From a virus (lineage: Duplodnaviria > Heunggongvirae > Uroviricota > Caudoviricetes), in IMG/VR virus record IMGVR_UViG_3300034102_002845: DNA of 33,146 bases. The stretch is one strand, 5' to 3'. Below the pieces are notes generated by a model that made no database searches, was not told the DNA's origin, and saw only the letters and a program-made list of their open reading frames with translations. The position numbers were made by a program, and so were the translations under genes. Below, piece after piece: positions 11,648 through 33,146 of the stretch (position 1 is the first letter of the stretch; each line of letters begins with the position of its first letter).

Positions 11648-13669
11648 ATGACAAACACTGTCAATGTAAACCTAGTCCAGCAAATTCAAGACGACTACCT
11701 TGCCTACTCGCTCAGTGTAATCGTGGGGCGAGCCTTCCCTCGGTACACGGACGGGTGCAAGAGTATCTCTCGGCGCATTGTAACAGCTATGAAGTGGCTC
11801 AACTTGAAGCCAGACGGTCGCTACATGAAAAGCGCCAGGGTAGAGGGGGAGGTTATGGGTAAATTGAGCCCCCACGGCGGAAGCTACAGCTCTATTGTCA
11901 CTTTGGCTGCCCCGTGGAATAATATGGCCCCGCTCGTAGACGGGCACGGGAATTGGGGGTCTTCGACAGACTCTGCGGCGTCGTCAAGGTACACTGAGTG
12001 CAAGCTCTCCCCTTTCGCCTGGGACTGCCTCCTCGACGACTCAGAAACCTGGGAGACGATGCCAAACTACGACGGTACGCTGCAGGAGCCAATCGAGTTA
12101 AACGCAAAGATTCCCTACGTTTTGCTCAATGGTCAAGAGGGCATTGGCGTGGGATACGCCTGTAAAATCGCCTCTCACAGTCTCCGTTCGATTGTTGAAG
12201 CAACCAAGCTGGTTTGCAAGGAAGCGATAACGTTTGAAGCACGCGCAGAAAACCTACGAAAAGCACGAGAGGTTCTCTTCCCTGACTTTCCAACTGGGAC
12301 CCTGATTGTAAAAGACGATCAGTTGGAGCAATACTCACTAACAGGCATTGGCAGCATTCGCTGCATGGCGAAGGTTGAGATTGGTACCCAGACCCGTAGT
12401 GGAAAGGCAAAGGACCGTCCGTCCTTAACCTTCACGAACTTACCGCCAGGAACCAATCCTGAGAAAATCGGTGAGCAAGTGAAAAATGAGGTTGAGCGAG
12501 GGAGGGTTGAGGGTGTCGCTGAGGTCAACGACCTGTCCGATCTTACGGGGGACTGCGTTCAAATTGTGGCCAAGCCCGGTGTGAGCCCGGAAAAGCTAAG
12601 AGATCAACTTTATGCCTACACCGACCTTGACTCCAAGTTCTCAGCGAGAACCTTAGTTATCGATGGCACGAAGCCCATAGAGCTCTCCCCGGTGGAAATT
12701 GTAGAGAAATGGGTGACATGGAGGTTGGGTAGATTACAAGTTAAATTCGAGAATGAGCTCACTCATCGAGAGGATCGCCTGGAAATTGTTCAGGGGTTGC
12801 TCAAAGCCATTGACAAGATGGACTTGATTATTAAGCGTATTCGTGCGGCAAAGGATAAATCTGAGGCGAAAGTTGCTCTAACGACCGCACCGCTGAAGTT
12901 CTCAGATAAGCAAGCTGAGGCCATTCTGGATATGCGCTTGCGTCAGCTTACGAACCTTGACCAAAACGACCTTATTGATGAGGATAACTACCTTCAAGGT
13001 CGGATTCAAGAGCTGGTAGAGCTGTCCAGCGACGAAACCAGAGGGACTACCGCGAGACAAGTGTATATGCTCAATGAGCTGACCGAGATAGGAAAACGCC
13101 ACGGAGAGGCTCGCCGAAGCCCCCTCATAGACCCCCCAACTGGCGGTGTGACCCGTGCTCCTGGGGAAAGCGTGAAGCGTCCTGCAGCCGCTCCAAAGCC
13201 ACGGTTCCTGAAGATTGACTCGAAGAAGGGCACTGTTGAGCAGGTGAAAGGGCCACGTGGAGCTCTTGTCGTAGACCCCAAAGACAAGGTTATTCTTATG
13301 ACTGAGGACGGGACACTGAAAAAGGTGTCAGCAACCTTCAAGGGAGTTATCTCAACAGCGTACTCCGCTGTTTGCTTGGCGAAGAAGGAGTCTGAGGTTT
13401 CCTTGAAAAAGTACCTAGTTGTGCTCGAACTCGACGGGCAGCTCAAAGCACTGACCCTGAGCGGAGAAGACCTTTGCAAGGTAACGAGCAAGGGCAAAAG
13501 GTGGCTGCCCGAAGGCGCCACACTCAGGCACTTTGGGGAGGGGAGTTTCACCCTGGACTGGGTTTCCACTCGAAAGAAGGCAACGAAACTCGACCTGTCA
13601 GTAAAGCTCGGGAAGCCGGGGGGCAAAGGAATTAAAGTCGCAAATATAGATGAGGTGAAACTACCTTAG
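11648..13669 (+). CDS. gyrA: type IIA DNA topoisomerase subunit A (GyrA/ParC family)
   Basis: GRAFP..DG.K...RR, KSARV.GEVMGK..PHG, G.GNWGS, catalytic SRYTE, LLNG..GIGVG, Q.EAILDMRLRQLT.L; short degenerate C-terminal domain. Gyrase vs topo IV not resolved. Confidence 0.93.
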   Translation: MTNTVNVNLVQQIQDDYLAYSLSVIVGRAFPRYTDGCKSISRRIVTAMKWLNLKPDGRYMKSARVEGEVMGKLSPHGGSYSSIVTLAAPWNNMAPLVDGHGNWGSSTDSAASSRYTECKLSPFAWDCLLDDSETWETMPNYDGTLQEPIELNAKIPYVLLNGQEGIGVGYACKIASHSLRSIVEATKLVCKEAITFEARAENLRKAREVLFPDFPTGTLIVKDDQLEQYSLTGIGSIRCMAKVEIGTQTRSGKAKDRPSLTFTNLPPGTNPEKIGEQVKNEVERGRVEGVAEVNDLSDLTGDCVQIVAKPGVSPEKLRDQLYAYTDLDSKFSARTLVIDGTKPIELSPVEIVEKWVTWRLGRLQVKFENELTHREDRLEIVQGLLKAIDKMDLIIKRIRAAKDKSEAKVALTTAPLKFSDKQAEAILDMRLRQLTNLDQNDLIDEDNYLQGRIQELVELSSDETRGTTARQVYMLNELTEIGKRHGEARRSPLIDPPTGGVTRAPGESVKRPAAAPKPRFLKIDSKKGTVEQVKGPRGALVVDPKDKVILMTEDGTLKKVSATFKGVISTAYSAVCLAKKESEVSLKKYLVVLELDGQLKALTLSGEDLCKVTSKGKRWLPEGATLRHFGEGSFTLDWVSTRKKATKLDLSVKLGKPGGKGIKVANIDEVKLP

Positions 13670-15238: not shown

Positions 15239-18169
15239 ATGAGAACCAGCGAACTCGGCTACCCTGTCCTGTCTACTCCACTGCACAATAAGGTTTTCGG
15301 CAGACAAAAGGCAGCTTCAATGGGAGTTAAGGCACGTCAAAAGGCCGAACGACTCTTAAAGCAATTTGGTATATCTGTCCCTGTTGATCACCCAGACAAC
15401 CTGTACGATGGTCCCTTGCCCCTTCCAAGCTTAAGGGGTAGCAATTTACAGGAGCACTTTGAAAACATAGCAACAGAGCAGGTAGGGGTGTACAAAACCC
15501 TTGCGAATTCTCTAGCGGGGTGCAAACTCCCAAAACTCCCTGCAGTTTCCGATTTCGTATATCAGGCGGGATGGACACGCTATGAGTTTGTGGACGGGAA
15601 GTTTATTGTCGAGTCCGTACCCTTCCCTCTCGAAGAGGCTTTCACGTACGACACTGAAACCTTTGTAAAAGCGGGTGCATTTCCAATTATTGGGACAGCA
15701 CTAAGCGAAAAAGCAACCTACATTTGGCTCGCGGCAGAGCTTATTGACCCAACCCTACCCGAGGAAGAGTGGGACCAACACGACCTTATTCCCATTGGGG
15801 AGAACCGGTTTGTAGCGGGCCACAACATTAGCTACGATCGTGTGAGAACACGAGAAGGATACTCACTTAGCCGTAACAAGCCTGAAAACTTTTACTTTGA
15901 CACCCTCTCCGCGCATATCGGAGTGTCGGGTTTGGCATCAGGACAACGGTGGTTGTACCTTCTTGCGGCAAAAGACCCAGAAAACCTGACTGAAGAGGAA
16001 AAGAGAAAGCTCAGGTACGCACCAAAGTGGCTAGATGAGGGCTCAACAAACAGCTTGGTCCAGTGTTACAACTTTCACGTTTATGAGGTTCGAAAGTATT
16101 TCGGCGATGAGACTGTCCGCCCGCTTAACCAAGGGGACAAGAAGATACGAGACATTTTCGTAGACGCTACGCACATCTCGCAAATCACAGCAGTTCTTGA
16201 GAAGGCCGTAGAGTACGCGGTAAGGGACGCATTTTACACGGCAGAGCTTTTTCAGGCTTTGTGGCCGAAGTATCTCGATAGCACTCCCTCAATGGTGGGC
16301 CTTTGCGGCCACTACCACTTAAACGGCTCGGTCGTACCACTGGTAGAAAACTGGGCTGAGTGGATTCAGAACACAGAAAGAGTGTTCCATGAGCACAGCC
16401 AGGAAATGACCGAGCTGTGCAGAGAACTTGTGTGGAAAACGTACAACGAGTGGAAGACTGTCCTTAATAGCGTGGAGGACCCGGAGGAGGGCATCACGAA
16501 GGCGCAGGAGTGGGCAGAGCAAGACCCTTGGGTGTCTCAGCTTAATTGGGAGCTTTGGAGTAGAAAAGGAAAGTACGCGTGGGTCCCTACTTGGGTGCAA
16601 CCCTTTGTGAAAGATCCGCAACAGCACATCGGAGTGAAGTCTCAATTGGCTCACTTGCTGTTGAAGCTCAAGTACGAGGGATCACACATTGTTCAAACCA
16701 AAACAGAGGGTTGGTGCTACTACGATGAAACAGGTAGCCTTGTAAAAGTTCCCCACCCTAAAGGGACCGGGGATAATACCGGAGTGTTACTCAGCAAGGA
16801 CTTTGTCCAAGATATGGAAACCGGGAGGCTAAGTAGCGATCTCCCTGAAGCTAAGAGAGCTCTGGAGATTTCAAACGCTATTTCTTACTGGACTTCTGTT
16901 CGTAAGCGGGTGATGGACCGGATCTTCCTCCGCGCTGAAAACCCGCATGGTTCGTCCGCTCTCGTGACTCTTCCCGAGATTCTCTGCCACGGGACGGTAA
17001 CTCGAAGAACCGTTGAAAGCTTGATGGCAACCATGTGCTCCACGAAAAACTGGAGAATTGGCACGGAGCTGAAAACACGAGTGCAGGCCCCCGAAGGCTG
17101 GAAAATTGTAAGCGCCGACTACGATGGTCAAGAGCTTCAGATCGCATCCATATACAGCGATACTTGGGAGGGTGGCTTTGTCGGATGCTCGCCGATGGGC
17201 TACAATGTCCTGTCAGGATCCAAGGAAAACGGCACTGATCCCCACACCGCTCTTGCTCGGGCCATTCTCCCTGAGATGTATAAGGGGCTTGTGTGGGACA
17301 GGAAGCTAGGAATTTGTTACAGTCATGAGAGTGAACCGTTGAATGTACCAAATTGTGTAAAGGCTGGAGAAAAATGGTTAAGCCCAATTGAACCCCAGTT
17401 GTACAAACTCCTGGCGAAAGCCAGAGACCTGAGTAAGATTGTCGGTTTTGCAACCTTGTACGGGGGGAGCGTAAGAGCATTGAGCACTCCAATTCGACGA
17501 ACTTTTCCTGAGAAAGGAGAGAGAGAAGTTAAGGATTTCGCACTGAAAGCACTGTCCTCGAAAAAAGGTGTTCTTGTGAACGGAGTGTATGAAGGTGGTT
17601 CTGACTCCGGCGCATTCAACTTGATGGAGCGAATCTCCATGAAGACAAAGGTTCCTCAGCTGCCTTGCCTTGGTACCAAAATTTCGACTGCAATGCGACC
17701 TGCGGCAGTTGGGACCGACTTTAGGACAGGACGCACAAACTGGGCCATCCAGGCATCGGGTGCCGAAATTCTATCCATAACGCTCACGGCTGTCGCGTGG
17801 CTAGCGGAAGAGTACAAAATTCCCTACCGCTTCATTATCAGCATTCATGACGAACTTCACTTCATGACTCCCGATCGGTACGCTACACAGTTTGCCGTTT
17901 TGTTTCAAATTGCCCATCTTTATACCTGGGCGAATTTCCATAGCGCAATGGATATACCGGAGCTTCCACTGAGTCGTGCGTTCTTCTCCTCAGTAGCAAT
18001 TGACTCTCGGATTCGTAAGTCCCCAAAAGAGTGCACGGTAACACCTTCAAACCCCCACGGTGCGAAAGAACCTAACGGAGTTGAGTACTCGATGACCGAA
18101 CTCGGTGAGATTGGGGCTGTAGACAAGCTAAAGACACGATACGAAGCTATTCAAAAAGGATTGATTTGA
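15239..18169 (+). CDS. family A DNA polymerase, mitochondrial Pol gamma-like, with 3'-5' exonuclease
   Basis: ExoI YDTET, ExoII GHNISYDRVR, DTLSAHIGVSGLAS.QR, SYW...RKR, GTVTRRTVE, motif A IGTELKTRVQAPEGWKIVSADYDGQEL, motif B R...K...F...YGG, NW.IQ.SG, motif C FIISIHDE, AFFSSV.ID..+RK; these blocks match Pol gamma-specific patterns. Confidence 0.93.
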   Translation: MRTSELGYPVLSTPLHNKVFGRQKAASMGVKARQKAERLLKQFGISVPVDHPDNLYDGPLPLPSLRGSNLQEHFENIATEQVGVYKTLANSLAGCKLPKLPAVSDFVYQAGWTRYEFVDGKFIVESVPFPLEEAFTYDTETFVKAGAFPIIGTALSEKATYIWLAAELIDPTLPEEEWDQHDLIPIGENRFVAGHNISYDRVRTREGYSLSRNKPENFYFDTLSAHIGVSGLASGQRWLYLLAAKDPENLTEEEKRKLRYAPKWLDEGSTNSLVQCYNFHVYEVRKYFGDETVRPLNQGDKKIRDIFVDATHISQITAVLEKAVEYAVRDAFYTAELFQALWPKYLDSTPSMVGLCGHYHLNGSVVPLVENWAEWIQNTERVFHEHSQEMTELCRELVWKTYNEWKTVLNSVEDPEEGITKAQEWAEQDPWVSQLNWELWSRKGKYAWVPTWVQPFVKDPQQHIGVKSQLAHLLLKLKYEGSHIVQTKTEGWCYYDETGSLVKVPHPKGTGDNTGVLLSKDFVQDMETGRLSSDLPEAKRALEISNAISYWTSVRKRVMDRIFLRAENPHGSSALVTLPEILCHGTVTRRTVESLMATMCSTKNWRIGTELKTRVQAPEGWKIVSADYDGQELQIASIYSDTWEGGFVGCSPMGYNVLSGSKENGTDPHTALARAILPEMYKGLVWDRKLGICYSHESEPLNVPNCVKAGEKWLSPIEPQLYKLLAKARDLSKIVGFATLYGGSVRALSTPIRRTFPEKGEREVKDFALKALSSKKGVLVNGVYEGGSDSGAFNLMERISMKTKVPQLPCLGTKISTAMRPAAVGTDFRTGRTNWAIQASGAEILSITLTAVAWLAEEYKIPYRFIISIHDELHFMTPDRYATQFAVLFQIAHLYTWANFHSAMDIPELPLSRAFFSSVAIDSRIRKSPKECTVTPSNPHGAKEPNGVEYSMTELGEIGAVDKLKTRYEAIQKGLI

Positions 18170-21505: not shown

Positions 21506-21600
21506 CTCTAGGTATACACCCTAAACCTTTGGCCTACGGGCACCACCGCCGGACTTATCCTCGCCGGCACAAAGGTAAGGAAAAGGAGGAATCTACCCAA

Positions 21601-24600
21601 ATGGCAACTTTTTCTTTCGGCACCGGTATCGTCCCCGGAGCACCAGGTACATATATCAACGAGCGTGTTGGAAATGTAGCTTCCACCGGTATTGCCTCGT
21701 TCAACACAACTTACATGTTGGTTGAAACTGAGGAAGACGTCACTGTCGCACGTTTCCCTTTCAACACACCAGTTCCAGTATCTTCACTAACCGACTACAA
21801 AGCCTTGGTAGGGAAAGTTCCCGAAACTCGTATTCCCCTCCTTAGCTACAACTGTGTGAATGCATTCTTTTTGAATGCGCAAGTTGGTGATCTTCGAGTC
21901 GTTCGTGTTGGAACTCCAAACCAGATTGTAGAAATAGAGATTCTTCCGTCGGGCTCCAAGATTAGTAGCACTGGCCTTCCATCTACCCTTAAAGCTGGCG
22001 ACGTAGTTTATGCACAGCTTATCTTAAACGGATTGAAGCTTGTTGCTGGAGACGGCTCAAACGGATACACATCCGAAGGGGAATGGCTCGGCGTGCCAAC
22101 AGTAATTCCTGTTGATTACATTTCCGGTGACAAGGTCAATAACCGCAAAATTTCTGCCGCAATTTCAAGCTCAATCGCCGCAGCTATTCAAAGTAACCCA
22201 AGTGTAAGCAGTGCCATATTCGTTCGTGACTCGGGCCTCGCAAACGATTTGCTCCCTTCCTCAAACTCGGAAAGCGGCTACGTAACAATTGCAGCAGCCA
22301 CCTACGACGGGAGTGTTTCCGTAGTAACCGAGCAACTGCCAGTTGGAGCGCAAAAGGTCTTAATGCAGACCGCGTACAGTATTCAAAATGTCGTTGGCCT
22401 TCAAAACAATCTTGAGCGAGTTCCTCAGGATTACGTTCAGTGTATTAACACTGCCTTTGACGGACAAGCAAACCAAGGGTACCTTGTAACTCCCACCGCG
22501 TACGCTCAATTCGACGCCGAAGGCCGGTCCCTAGTTGGAGCAGCAGCTGCCGCACACTGCCAGGACAACAACTTTAAGTGGATGGCCGCAGCAGACCCAG
22601 GCTCCTTCCTTGTTACCGACGTAAACAAGTACAAAGAATACACTCCGCATCAGCCCGCAGAAGACCTTGTAACCGACAACCTATACCTGGTTGATAACGC
22701 CATCTATCAGTGGAAGGGTGAAGAAGTAACATACGACCGTCTAAAACACCAGACCCTAGTTCCCGGCTACGACCCTAAGGTTGCTGTTCAGTCGTCAGTG
22801 GAGGGAGTAGCGGAGGGCGAAACTGTTGGCCTCCTGGACTTAGCCAAGTTCACAGTCACATCCTCTGCCTCTCTAGCCAACCGGGGAGTCTTCGCCCTGG
22901 GGTCAAGCACAGTTTGGCCGGTAGACTACCAGATTCAACGAGTAACATTGAGTGGCCTTGGCGCGGATTTTCTGCCCCTACTTCCACTTGGAGAAACCTC
23001 AACTGAGGTGTACTTCGTGGCACCCCCACTTTCCAGTGCCCAATACGGAACGTACCCATCAGACGGACAAGTACAATACGTTTATATCGCACAAACTTCT
23101 ACTCAAGCTGTGTCAATTCTGGCTGAAGTTACAGCCTTGGGGGGTACCAGTGCTGCATTAAACGCACCTCTAACTCCCTCCGGAGCATTCAGTGTTGCAT
23201 CCCCAACTTCAAGTACAGCTCAAGCGACTTATACCACACCCCAGTGGGATTTACCTGTAACTATTGAGGGTCAGACCTCAAACTTGATTCACAATCTGAC
23301 TGGTGCTCCTGCTTTTGTGAACACTCTCCACTTACCTGGAAGCTTACAGAACACCACCGATGACTACCGCCTATCCTTTGTAAGCCGCTCACTATTCAAC
23401 CCCTCAACTGTGCTTTCCTCAAGCACTGTCCCAGGATACACCGGTGCCGCTTCCTTCGGAGTAACATCTCACAAATTAGTTAACGGACAGAAACTTTTCT
23501 TTACTAAGCCCATTCTGGCAGGCACTGCAACCCTCTTTAAGGCAACAGTTAGAAACAATCTACAAGCTTATTATGTTAAGGTAATTGACCCCGATAAGTT
23601 TGTACTTGCAACTTCTAGCTCCAACTACCTTGCAGGTTCTTACGTTCCCTATCCTGTTGGGATGGTAAGCATTTCCACGAGTCCCACCATCCTGTACACT
23701 TCGGTCCTAGGCGGCGGGTTAACTACTGTAAACCTCTCGGAGTTGAGCGTTGTTCCGTTGGTTCGAGGGAGAAAGTACGGACTGGCTTCGGGTACAATCG
23801 CAGACCGTGCGTACGATCACAACTTGCTCACGGCGAACGACGATCCAACTGTATCCCTGTACCTGAACTCAAGTCCTTTAGTTATTGGGTCGGAGCACGT
23901 CTACCCGTACGGTGAAACTGCTAACGCGGGGTGGTTACCCTCTTTAGAACTTGTGGGGCCTGGGGAGACCTCAACGAGTGTTGAGAACTTTCTTTGCACC
24001 CCCACTGTGGACCAAAACTTCTCCTCGGAAGCACACATCGTCCCTGTGATCGATCCGATTTTCGGAGGAAACTTCAGCGCAAGTACCACTGTTGTCCTCG
24101 GAAAGCTTGTTTCTGTGACGCCATACGTCACCGCTTGTGGTCTCCTCGTTGACAGCACTGGAGTTGCAATTCAAGCAGCTCTCTCAAAATTGAGCGGAGT
24201 TTATTTTAACGTTACGGTTGCACCGGCGAACTCCGTTGCTCCTGACGGAGTTACACGAGTCGTTGTCGGGGACAGGTTGGCGGTTACATTTGACGGCTCA
24301 TCCTACAGTTGGGTTGTTGTGCCGGCGAACACCCTTGGCGGTGACTTGAGCACAGTTTCCACTGTTTGTTACGGTTCACAAGTTGAATTTGCTCTCACTC
24401 CTGAACAAACACCAAGCACAAATCTGTGGAGATTCGAGACCATCACGTCTACCGAAATTATCGACGAAGCACTTCGTGGTGTTGGATTTGCAGGCGAACC
24501 CCAAGCTGTGTTTGTGGAAGCGGGTGTTGACAATGTCAACAGACTATTCGAGGACAGCCAGCGCTACTTCAATGCCTTCGGCTTCATTGCTTTCTACGGC

Positions 24601-25254
24601 CCATACGTGGAGAACTCGGCAGGACAATTTGTTCCCCCCTCTCCGTATGTGACCGGGATCGCAGCTCGCCGTTACCGCTCCGAAGGGTTCCAGTTCCCCC
24701 CTGCAGGTACCAAGTACCAACTCGCAGACGCTGCTGGCGTTCAAATTTCTGTGAACTCGGCTCAGCAAAACTTGCTTAACCCAGATGGTTGTAACGTTCT
24801 TCGTTCCTTGCCAGGGTACCCCAACACTGCGGTGTTCGTCTGGGGCGGTCGCACTCGAATTAACAAAGCCGTCGCTGATCAGCGTAAGTTCCAATTTGTG
24901 AACACTCGTGTGATTCAGAACGTGGTTTATGGATCCCTTCGTAATGCTTTCGACAACCAGATCTTCTCGGTTGTTGACGGGTTTGGTATTGTGTTCAACC
25001 AAATTGTTTCCATTGGGAATAGTGTTCTGAGTCAGCTTTACCTTTCCGGTGCACTCTTCGGTGCGAGACCCTCGGACGCATTCCAAGTGATTTGTGACGA
25101 GCGCATTAACAGCGGGGGAAACCTCGAGAACGGTGTTGTGTTTGTGAAGGTGTTTGACACCCCCGTACCAACACTGGAAAGAATCGAGGTTGATCTTATT
25201 CGCGTCTCTGTTGGCCAAATGAACAGAGAACTTGATTCTCAGGGCCTAGGTTGA
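21601..25254 (+). CDS. contractile tail sheath protein (1217 aa, large insertion)
   Basis: N-terminal PGAPGTYINE; C-terminal PPSPYVTGIAAR..PPAG..GCNVLR..VWGGRT..FVNTRVI..F..V..+P.LERI; AAGGAGG SD before ATG 21601. Confidence 0.9.
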   Translation: MATFSFGTGIVPGAPGTYINERVGNVASTGIASFNTTYMLVETEEDVTVARFPFNTPVPVSSLTDYKALVGKVPETRIPLLSYNCVNAFFLNAQVGDLRVVRVGTPNQIVEIEILPSGSKISSTGLPSTLKAGDVVYAQLILNGLKLVAGDGSNGYTSEGEWLGVPTVIPVDYISGDKVNNRKISAAISSSIAAAIQSNPSVSSAIFVRDSGLANDLLPSSNSESGYVTIAAATYDGSVSVVTEQLPVGAQKVLMQTAYSIQNVVGLQNNLERVPQDYVQCINTAFDGQANQGYLVTPTAYAQFDAEGRSLVGAAAAAHCQDNNFKWMAAADPGSFLVTDVNKYKEYTPHQPAEDLVTDNLYLVDNAIYQWKGEEVTYDRLKHQTLVPGYDPKVAVQSSVEGVAEGETVGLLDLAKFTVTSSASLANRGVFALGSSTVWPVDYQIQRVTLSGLGADFLPLLPLGETSTEVYFVAPPLSSAQYGTYPSDGQVQYVYIAQTSTQAVSILAEVTALGGTSAALNAPLTPSGAFSVASPTSSTAQATYTTPQWDLPVTIEGQTSNLIHNLTGAPAFVNTLHLPGSLQNTTDDYRLSFVSRSLFNPSTVLSSSTVPGYTGAASFGVTSHKLVNGQKLFFTKPILAGTATLFKATVRNNLQAYYVKVIDPDKFVLATSSSNYLAGSYVPYPVGMVSISTSPTILYTSVLGGGLTTVNLSELSVVPLVRGRKYGLASGTIADRAYDHNLLTANDDPTVSLYLNSSPLVIGSEHVYPYGETANAGWLPSLELVGPGETSTSVENFLCTPTVDQNFSSEAHIVPVIDPIFGGNFSASTTVVLGKLVSVTPYVTACGLLVDSTGVAIQAALSKLSGVYFNVTVAPANSVAPDGVTRVVVGDRLAVTFDGSSYSWVVVPANTLGGDLSTVSTVCYGSQVEFALTPEQTPSTNLWRFETITSTEIIDEALRGVGFAGEPQAVFVEAGVDNVNRLFEDSQRYFNAFGFIAFYGPYVENSAGQFVPPSPYVTGIAARRYRSEGFQFPPAGTKYQLADAAGVQISVNSAQQNLLNPDGCNVLRSLPGYPNTAVFVWGGRTRINKAVADQRKFQFVNTRVIQNVVYGSLRNAFDNQIFSVVDGFGIVFNQIVSIGNSVLSQLYLSGALFGARPSDAFQVICDERINSGGNLENGVVFVKVFDTPVPTLERIEVDLIRVSVGQMNRELDSQGLG

Positions 25255-25974: not shown

Positions 25975-27462
25975 TTGGCAAATAGGTTCAAGACAGCTCC
26001 GGTACCGAAGGGGGAGATCTCAAGTTATACGAGCGACCCTTATAACTTATCCAGTATTTACATGTTTGGGAGCTCTTCTCCCTTTACTGGATCCGGAAAT
26101 AGCATCGTTCGACCAAGTGACGACCTTCTCATCCAGAAGGGAGGGAACCGTGCGCTTTCCGTCTATCAGCGGCTTTTCTTTGACGAGCACGTACAAAGTT
26201 CGTTCTCAAAGTTAGTTCAAGAGGTTGTATCGAGACCGTGGTACGTTGAGGAATACAGCTCAAAGCCTGGCGATACTGCAGTAAGGGACTTCGTAGCAGA
26301 AATCCTCGAAGAATTACCCTTAGACGAGATATATAAGGGACTTGCTGAAGCCCTTATCGTGGGGTTTAGTGTTGGCGAAATAATGTGGAAGAAATCAAAA
26401 CGCGGGGTAATACCCTTTGACATAAGAATTAGAGACCAGCGCCGATTTGTTTTCCAAGAAGCGGAAGACTCACAAACGGGCTTCACAATGAGGTGCTTAA
26501 CCTTCAATCGTATGTTTGAGGGGGTTGAGCTCCCTGCTCGAAAATTCGTCGTAAATCGCTACTGGACTCAGCACAACGGGGACCCATACGGAACTTCGCT
26601 AGGGCGAGTTCTTTACCCCCTGGTGAAATTCCGAAGAAGAGCCCTTGAGTCCTACGTTCTTTACGGGGACCGGTATGCGACACCCACAGCTGTTGCGACT
26701 GCACCCTTGAGCGCGTCTTCTGCCGAAATTGACACGATCTATGACCACATCTCAAACTTATCTCAGGAAACTGCGCTAATTTTGCCGGAAGGGTACAAGC
26801 TTGAGTTTGTCAACCCGAGCGGAACTCCGGATGTGTTTAAGGGACTGATTGACTATATCGACAAGGAAATTAGCCTCATACTTTGCGGGGAAAACGAGGC
26901 TGGGCAAGCTGAGTCTGGATCCAGAGCTTCTTCACAGGTTGCAAACGTTGTTCGAGTTGTGAAGGCAGCGGAAATTTCCGAAGCGATCTCTCACACTTTA
27001 ACTCGCACTCTGGTACGATGGATTGTAGACCTTAACTTCGGTGTAGACGTTGCAGCGCCAAGCCTCACAAGGGAGTTTCGAATTGAGGAGTCTTCCCTCA
27101 ATGCCACCGACCTGGGAGCCCTTATCGACAAGGGGTACAAACCGCGTAGGGAGTGGGTTGGGAGGCATTTTCGTATTGAGCTTGAAGACGAAGCACCTGA
27201 GTTCACGACGAAAGAGGAAGAGGGGAATACCACGTTCAACCCAGACGAAGACGAGGATCTCTACGGGTCTATTTTTGGTGCTGACGGAGAGTACCCTGAA
27301 GAAATTTCAGAGGGTGACAACGAGCCAAAGCCGGAGGAAGAACCATCCGGTGAGCAAACCACGTACAACCCTGAAGAGGACGGAAACCTTTACGACTCAG
27401 TGTTCGGGAATGACTTAGAACCCGCTGAAGAAGGCGAAAAGAAGGGTAAAAAACGTGTATGA
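25975..27462 (+). CDS. portal protein, DUF935 / Mu gp29 family
   Basis: DEHV.S...K....V....W, GFSVGEI.W, RDQRRF.F, GDPYG..L...LY, RYA.P, I...+.GE; acidic C-terminal tail; TTG start after GAGG. Confidence 0.88.
   Translation: MANRFKTAPVPKGEISSYTSDPYNLSSIYMFGSSSPFTGSGNSIVRPSDDLLIQKGGNRALSVYQRLFFDEHVQSSFSKLVQEVVSRPWYVEEYSSKPGDTAVRDFVAEILEELPLDEIYKGLAEALIVGFSVGEIMWKKSKRGVIPFDIRIRDQRRFVFQEAEDSQTGFTMRCLTFNRMFEGVELPARKFVVNRYWTQHNGDPYGTSLGRVLYPLVKFRRRALESYVLYGDRYATPTAVATAPLSASSAEIDTIYDHISNLSQETALILPEGYKLEFVNPSGTPDVFKGLIDYIDKEISLILCGENEAGQAESGSRASSQVANVVRVVKAAEISEAISHTLTRTLVRWIVDLNFGVDVAAPSLTREFRIEESSLNATDLGALIDKGYKPRREWVGRHFRIELEDEAPEFTTKEEEGNTTFNPDEDEDLYGSIFGADGEYPEEISEGDNEPKPEEEPSGEQTTYNPEEDGNLYDSVFGNDLEPAEEGEKKGKKRV
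27229..27407 (+). repeat. two degenerate copies of TT(F/Y)NP(D/E)ED..LY.S(I/V)FG.D in the portal C-terminus
   Basis: Copies start at 27229 and 27358. Confidence 0.75.
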
Positions 27463-30038
27463 GTACAACGAGTAGCAAAGTGTTTTCAAAACGTGTTCAT
27501 GTTTTTACGGCGGGACCCCAGGTTTCTGCCCAGGGCGTAGAAAGGGACTTCACACCCCAAGACCTTCAGCAAGTTGTTGATTCCTACGACCCCCAAACAC
27601 ATGAGGCACCCCTTGTTATTGGTCATACTGGGGACAACGACAGTGTTCCTTCTTTCGGGTGGGTCAAAAAGTTGGTCAGGAGCGGAGAGAAGCTATACGC
27701 AGACGTCGACTTCACTGACACTGCTAAAGATTTGGTGAAAAAAGGGCATTACCGCAAAGTCTCCATATCCTTCTACTCTCCAAACTCTCCAATTAACCCC
27801 CATGAGGGACAGTGGAGCGTCCGGCACTTGGCACTTTTGGGGGCGTCGCCCCCTGCGGTTAAGGGCTTGGAGCCTTTCTCGTTCTCTGAGGAAGGTGACG
27901 GAGTGTTCAACTTCGCTTCAACCCTCTCTCCCGAAGAAATCTTTGACGATGAGCTCGGCCCCACACTTCTTGTTGAGCGAGGCCCGTTGGAAATCCTAAA
28001 GGAAAAGCTTGAGGAAATTCGTGGAGACATGAGTTCTTCTCTTCAAGAGCTACAAGAAAACCAAGACGATCAGACTGAAACAGACGTCGATTCGACACAA
28101 ACTACAAATTCGGCGGATGAAAGTACCGCCCCCGAAAACCCTAACCAGCAATTTTCCGAAATGAAAAAGAAAATGGGGCGTGAAGGAGCTGAAGTCTCCG
28201 AATCCGCTCAAAGTCTAGCAAACATGGAAGACAAATTTCCAGAAGAGAAGTTCGACGAAGGAGTCTCTCGCAAAGTTGCGAAGGGTGCTCACGGCCACCA
28301 TGTACAAGTTGTGGAAGAGGTTTTTGAAGAAGGCGACGAAGAACTCTCGGACGAACACCGCGAGATTCCCGCTGCTTTCAGGAAAAATATCGCTAAGATG
28401 AAGGCTAAGCACAAAGCCCACGATGAGGACGGGGAAGATGATGAAGACGAACTTTCCGAGGAACACCGAGAAGTTCCTGCGGCTTTCAAGAAAAATATCG
28501 CTAAGATGAAGGCCAAGACAGCGAAGGTGGAAGAATCCGACGAGGAAGATTCTGAGGGCGACTACGCTGAGGTAGGGTTTAAGAAAACTGCGAACAGACA
28601 GGCATCATTTGGAAAACGTGCTGAGAAGGATTCAGGGGATCCAGCTGGTCGTTCTAAAACAGCACGGTCATCCGACGATAGCTACGGGGACCGTCAGTCG
28701 GTTGGACAAGGGGATGAGGAAGACCGCGAAGGTTTGACTTCAGACGTGACGCAAGACACGGACCGTTTAAACACTGCTAAGGACGGTGACCAGGAGCAAG
28801 ACCGAGAAGAGCTGGCGAAAGCACTCGACGGTGAAGGGGACGAAGATTCCCGTTGGGCCGACCAACCTGAGGGTCGCCGCCGTTCAATGGAAGACGACCA
28901 GTACAACGACGGTGAGTACGGCCTCCCCGGAAGAAACAAGCCGGGAACCTCCGATGGAAACGACCCCCACGGTCGAGACGGCGGGCCAACAACCGTCTCT
29001 GAGGACTCTGAGGAAGAGCCCGACACCGAAGATATTGCTGTGCCGCTTCAGAGCACCAAAGGCAACAAAGTTTCTCGCGTTCTCCACCAAACCTCTGGAC
29101 AAAAGAGGGCGTCGGTCAAAGGTAAGGAAATTGCGGATCACAGCGAAGAGTCCGACGGTGTTACACGAACTGCAAAAAAGGCAGGTGTTTCTGCGGGGAA
29201 CGATCCCCACGGTCGCGAAGACGGACCCACAAACTTCCCAGACCGGTCCGAGGAAGAGCCGGACGACCTCGACATTGCTGTCGACCTAGAAAGTGTCGTT
29301 GGTAGTCGCAAAGTTCGTGTGCTGCGTCAGCGATCGGGTGAAAAGCCTTCGATCGACCACGCTGAAGACGACGATCTTGACATGGAAGAGTGTGGGACTT
29401 CCAGGAAAGTTTCTCGCAAGTTCGCAGAACGCGATCCAATGACTCGAACCGGAAAGGGCTCGACTTACGGGCAAAAGCGTCCCGCTATGGAAGAGGATCC
29501 GGACGAGGATGGCGACCGTGACGACAACGAATTCGCTGAAACTGACGACTTCTGCGGAATGGGGTCAATGGGACAGGCTAAGCCCATGGGATATCCGGTT
29601 CAAATGTTCGAGGAGTTCCAACGCGAGCTGGAAAATCTTAAGAATGAAAATTCTCGCCTGAAGAGAGAGTACCAGGAGCATCAGACCAAAACACGTAAGC
29701 AACGCATCGCCGACTTTGTTGACAGCCTCTACACCGAAGGAAAGATGACCGACGGAGTAATTCCTCAGAGAGAGCTTCAAAACTACTGCGAAGGTCTTGA
29801 GTTCGGTACACTTGACTTCGCAGAAGGAGAAACTCCAACGACCAAGTTGTTTGCGCTGCTTGAGCGTTTGCCCAACATGGTTCACTTCGGTGAAGTTGTC
29901 GCAGAGGGACGTTTCAGTGACCCTGAAGATGACGAAGATCTAGACCCCCATTCTCGTGCAATGAAGATGGTTCAGGCTGGAGAGTGCGATTACGTTGAGG
30001 CAATCAAGCGTTCCATTCCTTGGGGAGGTCGGGGCTGA
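27459..30038 (+). CDS. Mu gpI-like prohead protease fused to a long acidic scaffold region
   Basis: YDP..HEAPLVIGH, FGWV..L, YRKVSISFY.P, RHLALLGA.PPAVKGL; acidic repeats; C-terminal coiled coil. Confidence 0.85.
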   Translation: MSTTSSKVFSKRVHVFTAGPQVSAQGVERDFTPQDLQQVVDSYDPQTHEAPLVIGHTGDNDSVPSFGWVKKLVRSGEKLYADVDFTDTAKDLVKKGHYRKVSISFYSPNSPINPHEGQWSVRHLALLGASPPAVKGLEPFSFSEEGDGVFNFASTLSPEEIFDDELGPTLLVERGPLEILKEKLEEIRGDMSSSLQELQENQDDQTETDVDSTQTTNSADESTAPENPNQQFSEMKKKMGREGAEVSESAQSLANMEDKFPEEKFDEGVSRKVAKGAHGHHVQVVEEVFEEGDEELSDEHREIPAAFRKNIAKMKAKHKAHDEDGEDDEDELSEEHREVPAAFKKNIAKMKAKTAKVEESDEEDSEGDYAEVGFKKTANRQASFGKRAEKDSGDPAGRSKTARSSDDSYGDRQSVGQGDEEDREGLTSDVTQDTDRLNTAKDGDQEQDREELAKALDGEGDEDSRWADQPEGRRRSMEDDQYNDGEYGLPGRNKPGTSDGNDPHGRDGGPTTVSEDSEEEPDTEDIAVPLQSTKGNKVSRVLHQTSGQKRASVKGKEIADHSEESDGVTRTAKKAGVSAGNDPHGREDGPTNFPDRSEEEPDDLDIAVDLESVVGSRKVRVLRQRSGEKPSIDHAEDDDLDMEECGTSRKVSRKFAERDPMTRTGKGSTYGQKRPAMEEDPDEDGDRDDNEFAETDDFCGMGSMGQAKPMGYPVQMFEEFQRELENLKNENSRLKREYQEHQTKTRKQRIADFVDSLYTEGKMTDGVIPQRELQNYCEGLEFGTLDFAEGETPTTKLFALLERLPNMVHFGEVVAEGRFSDPEDDEDLDPHSRAMKMVQAGECDYVEAIKRSIPWGGRG
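28335..28517 (+). repeat. tandem duplication ELS(D/E)EHRE(I/V)PAAF(R/K)KNIAKMKAK
   Basis: Two copies about 108 nt apart in the scaffold region. Confidence 0.85.
28956..29343 (+). repeat. two copies (240-nt period) of GNDPHGR..GPT...(D/R)SEEEPD..DIAV.L.S..G..K..RVL.Q.SG.K
   Basis: Copies start at 28956 and 29196. Confidence 0.8.
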
Positions 30039-30828: not shown

Positions 30829-30902
30829 CTGATTAACTAAGCTAGGTGAAAAACAAGTCCTAGAGAAACCAACAAAACCAATAACCCTTTGAAAATATCA
30901 AA

Positions 30903-31376
30903 ATGGCCTTTAACATTGCACCAGTTTACGGTAAGCAATTCATTCGTTACGCGGAGACTTTCACAGCTGCTACTGACAACCAAGGTGGAACGGCTGGAGT
31001 CGTTGAAATTCCTGAGTTCGCAGTTGTTGCTTACGCAACCTACGCCGGAGCTAACAAAGTTTGCGCCCCTGGAAACCTGACCGCTTTTGATGGGAAGATT
31101 GTAGGCGTGAATCAGTCCTACATTCCCACAGCCCTTTCCCAACCTCGCACCGCTCGTCAAGCTTCTGTGGCCACCAGTGGCTCCTTGCTTGTTGAAGTGA
31201 GTGCCAGCGCCGTGGCCCCCTTCGTACTCAACGCCCAGCTTTCAGTTGGTGCTGACGGCAAGGCGCTACCCACTGCGAATACCGGGACCAACGTCACTCT
31301 TGACGGTACTATCCCGCTCATTCGTGAAATCGTGCGAATCGGCGGTCGCACTGTCTTGCTGGTTTCATTCGCCTGA
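30903..31376 (+). CDS. head decoration / capsid cement protein (DUF2190-like)
   Basis: Ala/Gly/Val beta-rich 157 aa; G....SV..SG...VE.......GA.L..GADGKA; lies between the head morphogenesis and capsid genes. Confidence 0.65.
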   Translation: MAFNIAPVYGKQFIRYAETFTAATDNQGGTAGVVEIPEFAVVAYATYAGANKVCAPGNLTAFDGKIVGVNQSYIPTALSQPRTARQASVATSGSLLVEVSASAVAPFVLNAQLSVGADGKALPTANTGTNVTLDGTIPLIREIVRIGGRTVLLVSFA

Positions 31377-31384
31377 GAAAAGCT

Positions 31385-31405
31385 GACGCATTTCGGTGCG
31401 TTTTT
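31385..31405 (+). terminator. rho-independent terminator-like hairpin 1
   Basis: GACGCAT-TTCG-GTGCGTT followed by a T run. Confidence 0.6.
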
Positions 31406-31408
31406 ACT

Positions 31409-31441
31409 AAGAGCCTTCAACTTTCGAGTTGGGGGCTTTTT
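31409..31441 (+). terminator. rho-independent terminator-like hairpin 2
   Basis: AAGAGCCTTCAACT-TTCG-AGTTGGGGGCTTTT(T), ~14-bp stem with G-U pairs. Confidence 0.65.
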
Positions 31442-31453
31442 CGTGAAAAAGAA

Positions 31454-31462
31454 GGGTATAAC
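31454..31462 (+). promoter_or_regulatory. GGGTATAAC variant, putative late promoter of the capsid gene
   Basis: Just after two terminators, 96 nt upstream of ATG 31550. Confidence 0.5.
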
Positions 31463-31549
31463 TACAGTGACCCCAAAGTTTTCGGACTCGCGGGTCAGAT
31501 TGCTTCGGCAATCTTTGAAGTCAACTTTACACACAAGGAAACATCTATT

Positions 31550-31558
31550 ATGATGAAT
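31550..31558 (+). CDS. probable major capsid protein, exon 1 (MMN)
   Basis: AAGGA SD upstream; ends in T at a P1 U-G pair (GAAU/GUUC). Confidence 0.75.
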
Positions 31559-32453
31559 CATAAAGGTTCCACTCAGAGGTGACTCTGATTGAAAATCGGG
31601 TGAATTGCTGGGATACCTTAGTTTTGCTTTTGCAAAATAGGCAATCAGCAGCCAAGTTTACTTAGGGTCTCTACTAACTATAGTAGTGTTAAGTAAAAAG
31701 GTTCAACGACTAGAAAGTGATCAACCCTGAAATAATCTTTCCACGAGCGCCCGACTCTCGTAACAACCACTTCTTAAGAAGATACCTAAGAATGTGCTTT
31801 AGCATAAGATCCTTATCTCGCGTAAAATGCAAGAGGGATGGTTTAGAAAAGCACAGAATTCTACCTAAATGTATGGGTGGAACTTACAACCCCGAAAACG
31901 TAGTTTTAACTACAAGAAGAGAACATACAGTTCTTCATTTAGTACTTCATAAAGCTTTCCCCACTAATATAAAACTCGCTGAATGCGCCTCCTTAATGAA
32001 CGGATCCAAAGGGTCCAAGTTCTACAAGACTCTGGAGTATTGTCAGAAAAACGAGGAAAAGTCAAAACGGATAGCTGAGTCTAACAGAAGGAGAAAAGTT
32101 TCTTGGGGTCATAAAATTTCCAGCTCCCTAAAAGGTCGAACCAAAGACAAGGAGCACAGGGATAAGATAAGTAGCACTATGAAAGAAGTGTGGAAAAATA
32201 ATCCCACAATGATTGACAAGTGCTCCCGTAAAAACTCTATCCATAGCGATGAGTCAAAGCGAAAAATTTCCTGTGCGATATCAAAACAAAGATGGTACTG
32301 GAAAATCGAAGGTGCAGAAGTGATTAGAACTCGGTCAGAAAAACACCCCGGCGAGGGGTGGCAGCTGGGCCGTAATCCGAGATGATGATATAGTCTGAAC
32401 TTTACAGAAATGTAGAGAAGTAAAGGATAAAGAGCCTTTACGATAACAAGTTG
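31559..32453 (+). mobile_element. group I intron 1 (IA-like, 895 nt) with HNH ORF in L8
   Basis: P3 TCGGGTG/CGCCCGA(31748), P GAATTGCTGGGA, Q AATCAGCAG, P7 GACTA(31708)/TAGTC(32391), extra P7.1/7.2 region, P9 hairpins, P9.0 AAC/GTT, terminal G 32453. Confidence 0.9.
31717..32385 (+). CDS. intron-encoded HNH homing endonuclease with NUMOD3-like C-terminal repeats
   Basis: EKHRILPKCMGG...PENVVLTT.REH...HL.L (HNH); KISSSLKGR..EHRDKIS..MK and HSDESKRKIS (NUMOD3-like); start codon uncertain (GTG 31717 vs ATG 31792). Confidence 0.85.
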   Translation: MINPEIIFPRAPDSRNNHFLRRYLRMCFSIRSLSRVKCKRDGLEKHRILPKCMGGTYNPENVVLTTRREHTVLHLVLHKAFPTNIKLAECASLMNGSKGSKFYKTLEYCQKNEEKSKRIAESNRRRKVSWGHKISSSLKGRTKDKEHRDKISSTMKEVWKNNPTMIDKCSRKNSIHSDESKRKISCAISKQRWYWKIEGAEVIRTRSEKHPGEGWQLGRNPR

Positions 32454-32480
32454 CTACAACAAACTTATGCAGGTGTGGAT
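32454..32480 (+). CDS. probable major capsid protein, exon 2 (LQQTYAGVD)
   Basis: 27 nt between terminal G of intron 1 and P1 (GGAU/GUCC) of intron 2; in frame. Confidence 0.8.
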
Positions 32481-32741
32481 TAATTAGGGTCCCAACTTCC
32501 AAACAAAGTTGAAAATCGGGTGAATTGCTGGGATACCTTAGTTTTGCTTTTGCAAAATAGGCAATCAGCAGCCAAGGCCCCTAGGGATAGGGGCAAGGTT
32601 CAACGACTAGATTAAGTAGCCTAGAACAGGCGAACAATCCACGAGCGCCCGACTCTTTGCTCAAGCAAAGATGATGATATAGTCTGACCTGTATGGAAAC
32701 ATACAGAAGCAAAAGATAAAGAGCTTTTGCGATAACACTGG
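32481..32741 (+). mobile_element. group I intron 2 (IA-like, 261 nt, no ORF)
   Basis: P1 GGAT/GTCC, P10 ATTAGG with CCAAT, P3 TCGGGTG/CGCCCGA, P7 GACTA(32605)/TAGTC(32680), P8 TCTTTGC/GCAAAGA, terminal G. Confidence 0.9.
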
Positions 32742-32780
32742 CCAATCCTCACAACACTCGCACAAGGCTTCATGCTCCCT
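32742..32780 (+). CDS. probable major capsid protein, exon 3 (PILTTLAQGFMLP)
   Basis: 39 nt, in frame; spliced VDPILTTLAQGF resembles the (V)DP+LT.+A.GY N-terminus of Mu-like major capsid proteins. Confidence 0.8.
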
Positions 32781-32995
32781 TTGGTGTAGGGGAAAAGAAA
32801 TTGGGTGAACTGCGGGAAAGCCTACTTTTGCTTAGCAAAAGGGTCAATCCGCAGCCAAGCTTCCGGTACACCGGAAGAAGGTTCAGAGACTACCTGGGGG
32901 ATTTAGTTCCCTTAATAACAGGCTAGAGCGCCCAACGTTTTGTAAAGAAACGATAAGATAGTCCGACACTCTGTGTAAGCAGAGAAAACATACTG
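32781..32995 (+). mobile_element. group I intron 3 (IA-like, 215 nt, no ORF, divergent from 1/2/4)
   Basis: P1 TCCCT/GGGGA, P10 GGTGTA with TCCACC (5/6 pairs), P3 TTGGGTG/CGCCCAA, P GAACTGCGGGAA, Q AATCCGCAG, R GTTCAGAGACTA, S AAGATAGTCC, P8 CGTTT/AAACG. Confidence 0.9.
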
Positions 32996-33013
32996 TCCAC
33001 CAACATTGCGAAT
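32996..33013 (+). CDS. probable major capsid protein, exon 4 (STNIAN)
   Basis: 18 nt, in frame; ends GAAT like exon 1. Confidence 0.75.
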
Positions 33014-33146
33014 CGATAGGGTTCCACTCAGAGGTGACTCTGATTGAAAATCGGGTGAATTGCTGGGATACCTTAGTTTTGCTTTTGCAAAATAGGCAAT
33101 CAGCAGCCAAGTTTACTTAGGGTCTCTACTAACTATAGTAGTGTTA
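33014..33146 (+). mobile_element. group I intron 4 (5' part; runs off the window)
   Basis: 33020-33146 identical to intron 1 31565-31691; P1 GAAT/GTTC. Confidence 0.85.

Follow-up and report, generated by a model that had tools for sequence, protein, structure and literature searches.

Group I introns split the start of a predicted capsid gene of a lake-water virus into micro-exons

Group I introns of phages normally occur singly and mostly in genes of nucleotide metabolism, and topoisomerase and DNA polymerase genes are their classical homes. Landthaler and Shub reportedly described, in 1999, three group I introns in orf142, one late gene of Staphylococcus phage Twort. Single group I introns are also known from the capsid genes of mycobacteriophage LittleE and lactococcal phage Tuc2009 (PMC3706429). 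Here we analyze the last part (31550-33146) of a 33,146-nt stretch of DNA, called the window below, from a virus of the class Caudoviricetes (IMG/VR record IMGVR_UViG_3300034102_002845). A preliminary description of the window had proposed that at least four group I introns cut a probable major capsid gene into micro-exons within its first 31 codons. We consider it very probable that this is the capsid gene of an uncultured lake-water myovirus of about 280 kb, repeatedly colonised by mobile group I introns that are removed from the mRNA. Judged by sequence comparison, the nearest cultured relative of the virus is Synechococcus phage S-CBWM1, and freshwater picocyanobacteria are its candidate hosts.

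The 5′ end of the gene consists of exons of 9, 27, 39 and 18 nt among four group I introns. Together these exons make up 93 nt, which translate as MMN, LQQTYAGVD, PILTTLAQGFMLP and STNIAN, and about 1.5 kb of intron surrounds them. Exon and intron boundaries were determined by hand parsing and by a custom-written spliced protein-to-DNA alignment, and the exon lengths, coordinates and spliced peptide given in the preliminary description were reproduced exactly. The features are as follows, with positions in the spliced coding sequence (CDS) and any open reading frame (ORF) indicated.

31550-31558, + strand: exon 1, ATGATGAAT, encoding MMN; start identical in the related genome G001 and in intron-less relatives, and colinear with MMN of S-CBWM1
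31559-32453, + strand: intron 1, 895 nt, CDS position 9, with a homing-endonuclease ORF in the P8 loop
31717-32385, + strand: endonuclease ORF of intron 1, 222 aa, HNH-like, phrog_655
32454-32480, + strand: exon 2, 27 nt, LQQTYAGVD, from spliced alignment; equal in length to the S-CBWM1 segment LNETFVGVE; RNA joints on both sides
32481-32741, + strand: intron 2, 261 nt, CDS position 36, without ORF
32742-32780, + strand: exon 3, 39 nt, PILTTLAQGFMLP; tblastn 100% to reference residues 13-25
32781-32995, + strand: intron 3, 215 nt, CDS position 75, without ORF and without P2
32996-33013, + strand: exon 4, 18 nt, STNIAN, from spliced alignment
33014-33146, + strand: intron 4, 5′ part, 133 nt, CDS position 93, ended by the contig end

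The single ORF that a gene caller would report at 31550-33146 is the endonuclease at 31717-32385 inside intron 1, as the preliminary description had also noted. Introns 1 and 4 have 137 nt in common at their 5′ parts (97-98% identity), and this repeat is the likely cause of the contig stop at 33146. The part of intron 4 that lies in the window is 100% identical to the start of a 938-nt, endonuclease-bearing intron in a related contig, L014.

We scanned the whole window with the Rfam group I intron model RF00028, which has a gathering score of 50 bits. Intron 1 was matched at 31545-32417 (60.8 bits, E 3e-13), intron 2 at 32446-32706 (97.1 bits, E 4e-24) and intron 3 at 32760-32985 (66.0 bits, E 8.6e-15). 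In a permissive scan of the last 247 bases, the cut intron 4 scored 31.9 bits (E 1e-6) over model positions 1-136 with a 3′-truncated flag, and its full-length twin in L014 and G003 is covered by RF00028 matches above the cut-off. Apart from the four introns, the Rfam scan of the 33-kb window matched no RNA family. T is the last base of each of the four 5′ exons, and G that of introns 1-3. For each of the four, a P1 helix with a U-G pair can be drawn by eye: GAAU/GUUC for introns 1 and 4, GGAU/GUCC for intron 2 and UCCCU/GGGGA for intron 3. When 21 related introns were folded together with RNAalifold, 28 of 40 consensus pairs showed compensatory double changes, across P3, P4, P6, P9 and P9.1, and intron 2 had a fold z-score of -5.0. 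Because the Rfam E-values, the covariation and the RNA junctions described below agree, chance is excluded, and the four group I cores, the U-G pairs of P1 and the terminal G of introns 1-3 all stand as first described.

The cmscan alignments contained an insert of 30-45 nt between P7 and P3′ that folds to a hairpin with covarying pairs, RF00028 being a general model and not specific to a subgroup. The 3′ part of the window introns aligned by blastn to intron regions of Bacillus, Staphylococcus, Clostridium, Streptococcus and Lactobacillus phages, and a 23-nt motif of the intron tail was present in more than 120 viral contigs. By these comparisons the introns are members of one widespread phage family, with an IA-like core and the P7-P3′ insert. 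In the 21-intron alignment, a few alternative P5/P6 hairpin sequences recurred in different combinations among introns of different sites, a reshuffling that suggests exchange between intron copies, by recombination or gene conversion, both inside one genome and from genome to genome.

Lake metatranscriptome runs contain about 65% of the words of this stretch. We compared contigs assembled from RNA runs X15, X16 and X18 and from DNA run X1 with positions 30900-33146. The joints 31558 to 32454, which removes intron 1, and 32480 to 32742, which removes intron 2, were present and exact in all three RNA runs and absent from DNA run X1. All three RNA runs also had a loose end at 32781, where exon 3 runs into exon 4 and then into the next exon (TTTATCGCACCGG, FIAP) without interruption. 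Unspliced contigs containing the introns occurred in the same RNA runs. The spliced junctions that the preliminary description had wanted to see in RNA are therefore there for introns 1 and 2 and for exons 3, 4 and 5, and the window introns are removed accurately from the capsid mRNA. That they splice themselves, independently of protein, is what we infer.

A second line of evidence came from relatives. In G001 the codons that flank window introns 3 and 4 are contiguous, and the second intron of G001 lies 5 nt downstream of the second intron of the window, so that the same protein is encoded with different intron positions. Another locus, L052, holds 11 introns. A public contig, L019 (IMG/VR 3300012770_000549), is this locus minus all of its introns, with 100% identity over 2.7 kb upstream, 1.2 kb downstream and every exon. 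At least half of the words of the joined L019 form (50-100%) were found in ten RNA runs only, and DNA runs reached at most 0.31, against the share of 0.335 expected for the joined L052/L019 form from exon-internal words alone. Because the joined form is confined to RNA runs and the DNA runs fit the exon-internal expectation, we take L019 to be spliced mRNA.

The same mRNA contig corrected one junction of L052. Our aligner had chosen coding position 86, which complies with the T/G rule for exon and intron ends; this was wrong, and L019 places the site at 93. The L052 intron at site 93 (L052:3292-3568) ends in A, not G, and has neither P9.1 nor the GATAACA motif of the family's usual 3′ tail. 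In L019 it is cut out precisely between GCGAAT and TTCATA. This may be natural group I splicing in which a terminal G is dispensable, or the assembly and the strain that was expressed may have different bases here. A further contig, L015 (IMG/VR 3300012708_000148), matches the window at 98% identity and carries introns 1-3 but lacks every intron downstream of these; it may be a transcript that was spliced in part, or a strain that truly has three introns.

The identity of the interrupted gene was examined on its full length, the remainder being read from the nearest record, G001 (190 kb, with 61% of the window's words in common), and from IMG/VR relatives. In-silico splicing, which the preliminary description had proposed, was run on G001: removal of its four introns left 1056 nt encoding an uninterrupted protein of 351 aa, residues 1-31 of which are identical to those of the window. 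The last exon of G001 matched PF03864 (Phage_cap_E) with 37.8 bits (cut-off 22.9, E 1.5e-9) and phrog_1005, a major head protein family, with E 4.6e-31; exon 3 of G001 also matched phrog_1005 (E 3.4e-11). An intron-less relative matched PDB entry 3bjq, a 'phage-related protein', with E 1.7e-29, and a profile search of PDB found no other entry. An AlphaFold2 model of the capsid protein, built with 22 close homologues aligned, had a mean pLDDT (predicted local distance difference test) of 40.6, a quality too low to look for an HK97-like fold.

Among cultured phages, S-CBWM1 has the nearest homologue, an uninterrupted gene annotated as capsid, with 61.6% identity over the last exon. The N-terminus of the S-CBWM1 capsid protein aligns residue by residue, without gaps, over all four junctions of the window. 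The homologues in S-CBWM1 and S-TIM5 bear the annotation of major capsid or virion structural protein, and the window gene is colinear with both. From these matches, 31550-33146 is the 5′ end of a predicted major capsid gene of the lambda gpE / Phage_cap_E type, in agreement with the preliminary assignment.

Upstream of the gene lie the following features.

25975-27462 and 27459-30038, + strand: Mu-type portal gene and head maturation protease gene, respectively (PF06074 E 3.7e-70; phrog_976 E 1.3e-64)

With portal and protease upstream, the synteny is that expected of a capsid gene. The order portal, protease, gpF and decoration protein had been suggested for this region; portal and protease are confirmed, and the gpF and decoration labels could not be confirmed, as the two ORFs between the protease and the capsid gene had no informative family match in Pfam or NCBIfam.

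At least 299 relatives of the last exon are present in IMG/VR; we took 80 of them and mapped the gene by nhmmer and tblastn, followed by spliced alignment. These 80 carry between 0 and 11 introns at no fewer than 13 sites, none of them beyond base 356 of the 1056 coding bases (coding positions 9, 36, 41, 75, 93, 150, 160, 192, 273, 281, 303, 318 and 356). In most of the 80 the gene is uninterrupted, also on contigs of 50-114 kb whose nucleotide identity is about 75-80%. The remaining relatives have 1-6 introns, except for L052, whose 11 each reach the Rfam gathering score. The shortest exons among the relatives are 8-10 nt. We considered whether all intron-less relatives might be derived from RNA, and rejected this for the group at large, as many of them belong to contigs that are 30-114 kb long, with about 75-80% nucleotide identity; it was accepted for L019.

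The introns are concentrated in this one gene. In G001 and in G002 (277 kb, 98% complete), every group I match above the cut-off falls within the capsid gene, and in the window the genes for DNA topoisomerase II (11648-13669) and DNA polymerase (15239-18169) are intron-free. The sole group I-like match outside the capsid gene in G002 is at G002:C1:248642-248804, with 30.9 bits, below the cut-off; it may be a degenerate intron or a chance match.

To extend the count beyond the end of the window we relied on L014, which matches the window over 1514 nt with 99.67% identity and extends intron 4 exactly. L014 has exons of 27, 39, 18, 188, 22 and 750 nt, and its intron 4, of 938 nt, holds a 241-aa endonuclease. 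This structure predicts six introns in the window's genome, at coding positions 9, 36, 75, 93, 281 and 303, and six is probably the total. Skipping from exon 1 to exon 5 would keep the reading frame and is plausible, as the P1 helix of intron 1 is the same as that of intron 4. In DNA run X1, loose ends were seen at window positions 32449 and 32454, and in a 6.5-kb contig the 3′ tail of an intron is followed directly by the last exon (CTGCACAAGTAGATC...), which is consistent with the predicted sixth intron. The same run yielded a low-depth contig (14x) with AATTGAAA followed by unrelated sequence, which may mark a further intron site, at about coding position 289, in a minor strain. One relative, L013:766-1737 (IMG/VR 3300044638_003508), is 100% identical to window positions 30900-31759 and then passes into the 3′ half of intron 4; it contains exon 1, a hybrid intron and exon 5, with exons 2-4 missing. 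Either the assembler collapsed the 137-nt repeat of introns 1 and 4, or recombination has truly deleted this part.

The ORF in intron 1 matched the homing endonuclease family phrog_655 with E 4.9e-21. Its first codons overlap the ribozyme core, which leaves the true start codon uncertain. Among the relatives, endonuclease ORFs occur at sites 9, 41, 93, 281 and 303, with one lineage per site and hence five lineages; endonucleases of one site are 55-100% identical, those of different sites 24-46%. An H..P..GG..N..REH..H motif is invariant across the site lineages. Strains that share 98-100% identity over the last 700 coding nt share only 86% over the first 120, with differences that are almost entirely synonymous, and such a mosaic of the 5′ exons is the pattern expected of exon co-conversion during homing. 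Across the family there is hardly any variation in the N-terminal 124 residues, which would for this reason be good homing targets. The introns would have spread by homing, on the indirect evidence of one endonuclease lineage per site and of the exon mosaic. The suggestion in the preliminary description of a hotspot for intron invasion fits well with at least 13 sites, polymorphism of presence and absence, and site-specific endonucleases.

We propose that the gene has been colonised repeatedly by one widespread family of phage introns, four of which lie in the first 31 codons with two more predicted downstream. Each intron would fold to a ribozyme and excise itself from the late mRNA, the U-G pair of P1 marking the 5′ site and the terminal G the 3′ site, and the micro-exons would be ligated into one reading frame of 351 codons. 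During co-infection, the HNH-like endonuclease would cut an intron-less allele, and repair would copy the intron together with neighbouring exon sequence. The introns would then be dispensable selfish passengers rather than a required regulatory device, and their pile-up in the 5′ third would reflect the most conserved part of the gene common to co-circulating strains.

Several observations weigh against this proposal or narrow it. The intron 1 ORF does not reach the Pfam HNH family, NUMOD3 scores a sub-threshold 13.6 bits, and NCBIfam has no usable family for it. Codon positions 1 and 2 show the same degree of conservation at coding nt 901-960, a stretch in which we found no intron, so that conservation alone does not explain the clustering at the 5′ end. 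Six introns are not certain, because L018, 99.7% identical to the window, has an intron 4 without ORF and a different downstream intron. The window itself ends within intron 4, and the remainder of the gene is taken from other contigs. The RNA evidence consists of assembled contigs from environmental libraries that possibly contain DNA, and the DNA run is not paired from the same samples. Contigs of this kind show presence; they do not give quantity, strand or the absence of rare variants.

It could be argued that the array is a regulatory gate, in which 4-6 splicing events delay capsid synthesis or couple it to GTP or Mg2+, as the preliminary description had suggested. The capsid protein is the most abundant late product, so inefficient splicing would affect yield, and the unspliced contigs found beside the spliced form in the same RNA runs mean that splicing may not be instantaneous; no other support for a gate was found. 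However, relatives with an identical N-terminal protein sequence carry 0, 1, 2, 3, 4, 5, 6 or 11 introns, strains that are 98-100% identical in the 3′ 700 nt differ in the sites that are occupied, and intron-less versions exist on contigs of 50-114 kb. With so variable a set of introns a conserved regulatory device is unlikely, and we regard the gate as very improbable; this part of the earlier interpretation was not supported. We give still less credence to an artefact of assembly, in which intron copies from several strains or genes were stitched together. The window contig does end within the 137-nt, 97% repeat of introns 1 and 4, L013 resembles a collapse between these introns with exons 2-4 deleted, and the unitigs of DNA run X1 break at the repeated cores. 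Yet independent assemblies made from separate samples of different years (L014, L015, L018) show the exons and introns in an identical order, 14 DNA runs contain 81-99% of the words, the micro-exons stand in the correct order between distinct introns, removal of the introns always restores a full in-frame capsid gene, and RNA contigs have the exact junctions. Such an artefact is thus extremely unlikely.

A role for selection deserves more weight, and we consider it possible though on balance doubtful. Endonucleases would cut the intron-less capsid genes of co-infecting phages, an occupied site would be immune, and introns would accumulate under selection. An intron-encoded endonuclease of PhiPA3 interferes with a co-infecting relative (PMC11620839); in our data, five site-specific endonuclease lineages occupy one essential gene, many closely related strains occur together in the same lake data sets, and exons near introns are mosaic between otherwise near-identical strains. 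On the other hand, most introns of the array have no endonuclease ORF (in the window intron 1 has one, and intron 4 probably), and purely selfish homing followed by loss of the endonuclease predicts the same pattern. Carried further, and no less tentatively, the 5′ third of the capsid gene would be a battleground of co-infecting strains, with stacked endonuclease weapons and cut-site immunity kept by selection. Intron number would then record an arms race instead of neutral parasitism, and the ribozymes would be adapted to work back to back over exons of 8-10 nt, one of them apparently without a terminal G. Together, the data lead us to repeated colonisation by homing introns: they are mobile genetic parasites at an unusual density in the capsid gene, not a built-in switch.

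Some features upstream of the introns were also recorded. A promoter and terminator scan of 31300-31600 gave nothing informative, with one promoter-like match, over the start codon, and a terminator call on the minus strand only. Between the upstream ORF and the capsid gene, at 31379-31480, there are two hairpins, each followed by a T-run. RNA contigs of the upstream gene end at 31409-31474, and a new contig starts at 31479/31480 in each of the three RNA runs. We see in these hairpins and contig ends a weak hint of a terminator and a separate start of the capsid transcript. Further upstream, the tail sheath gene (21529-25254, 1241 aa) and the head protease gene (27459-30038, 859 aa, with the protease domain confined to the first 400 residues) are both unusually long and have extra domains without an assignment.

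One essential and very highly expressed structural gene therefore holds 4-6 introns, and 11 in a relative, within 356 coding bases, and environmental RNA indicates that the whole array is correctly removed. Such phages offer a natural system in which to ask how closely ribozymes can be packed and still fold and splice in order, how homing elements with different targets accumulate in one gene, and what cost or competitive benefit an intron load carries. There are practical warnings as well. Gene callers miss the capsid gene in these phages of about 280 kb, the repeated introns cause breaks or collapses in assembly, and public catalogues list some spliced mRNA among their 'intron-less' viral contigs, as in the case of L019.

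In a literature search with limited coverage of subscription journals, we found no description of the introns of this phage group, nor of such a density in one phage gene. Twort orf142, which the preliminary description had named as the closest precedent, resembles the present locus in having several related group I introns in one phage gene outside DNA metabolism, a likeness we draw from the title of that report and from general knowledge. It has three introns, whereas four are shown here and six predicted, relatives have up to 11, and exons go down to 8-10 nt; in addition, all above-cut-off introns of a near-complete relative genome lie in one gene.

Twort is not the only precedent to consider, as introns in capsid genes have been reported in LittleE and Tuc2009 (PMC3706429). 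There too it is the major capsid gene that is interrupted, U is the last base of the exon and G that of the intron, and a homing endonuclease is present (PMC3706429); the intron is missing from close relatives and is spliced during late expression (PMC3706429). These phages have one intron each, however, and the LAGLIDADG-like ORF of LittleE is on the opposite strand (PMC3706429), whereas the locus described here has an array of introns, HNH-like ORFs on the same strand, and sites that are only 5 nt apart between strains.

The Jug gut jumbo and crAss-like phages are likewise large, uncultured phages in which many group I introns and HNH endonucleases split essential genes (PMC12880540), and there, too, splicing was confirmed by metatranscriptome reads (PMC12880540). 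In the Jug phages the introns, about 18 per genome, are spread over many genes, including terL in 2-3 pieces, nrdD and DNA polymerase (PMC12880540), in contrast to the first third of a single gene here. The introns of T4 td, nrdB and nrdD, of the SPO1 DNA polymerase gene and of PhiPA3 (PMC11620839) have the same ribozyme core with an endonuclease ORF in a peripheral loop, and they also show polymorphism of presence and absence between relatives and signatures of exon co-conversion. Those systems have one intron per gene, mostly in genes of nucleotide metabolism or polymerases, whereas in the virus studied here the polymerase and topoisomerase genes are free of introns.

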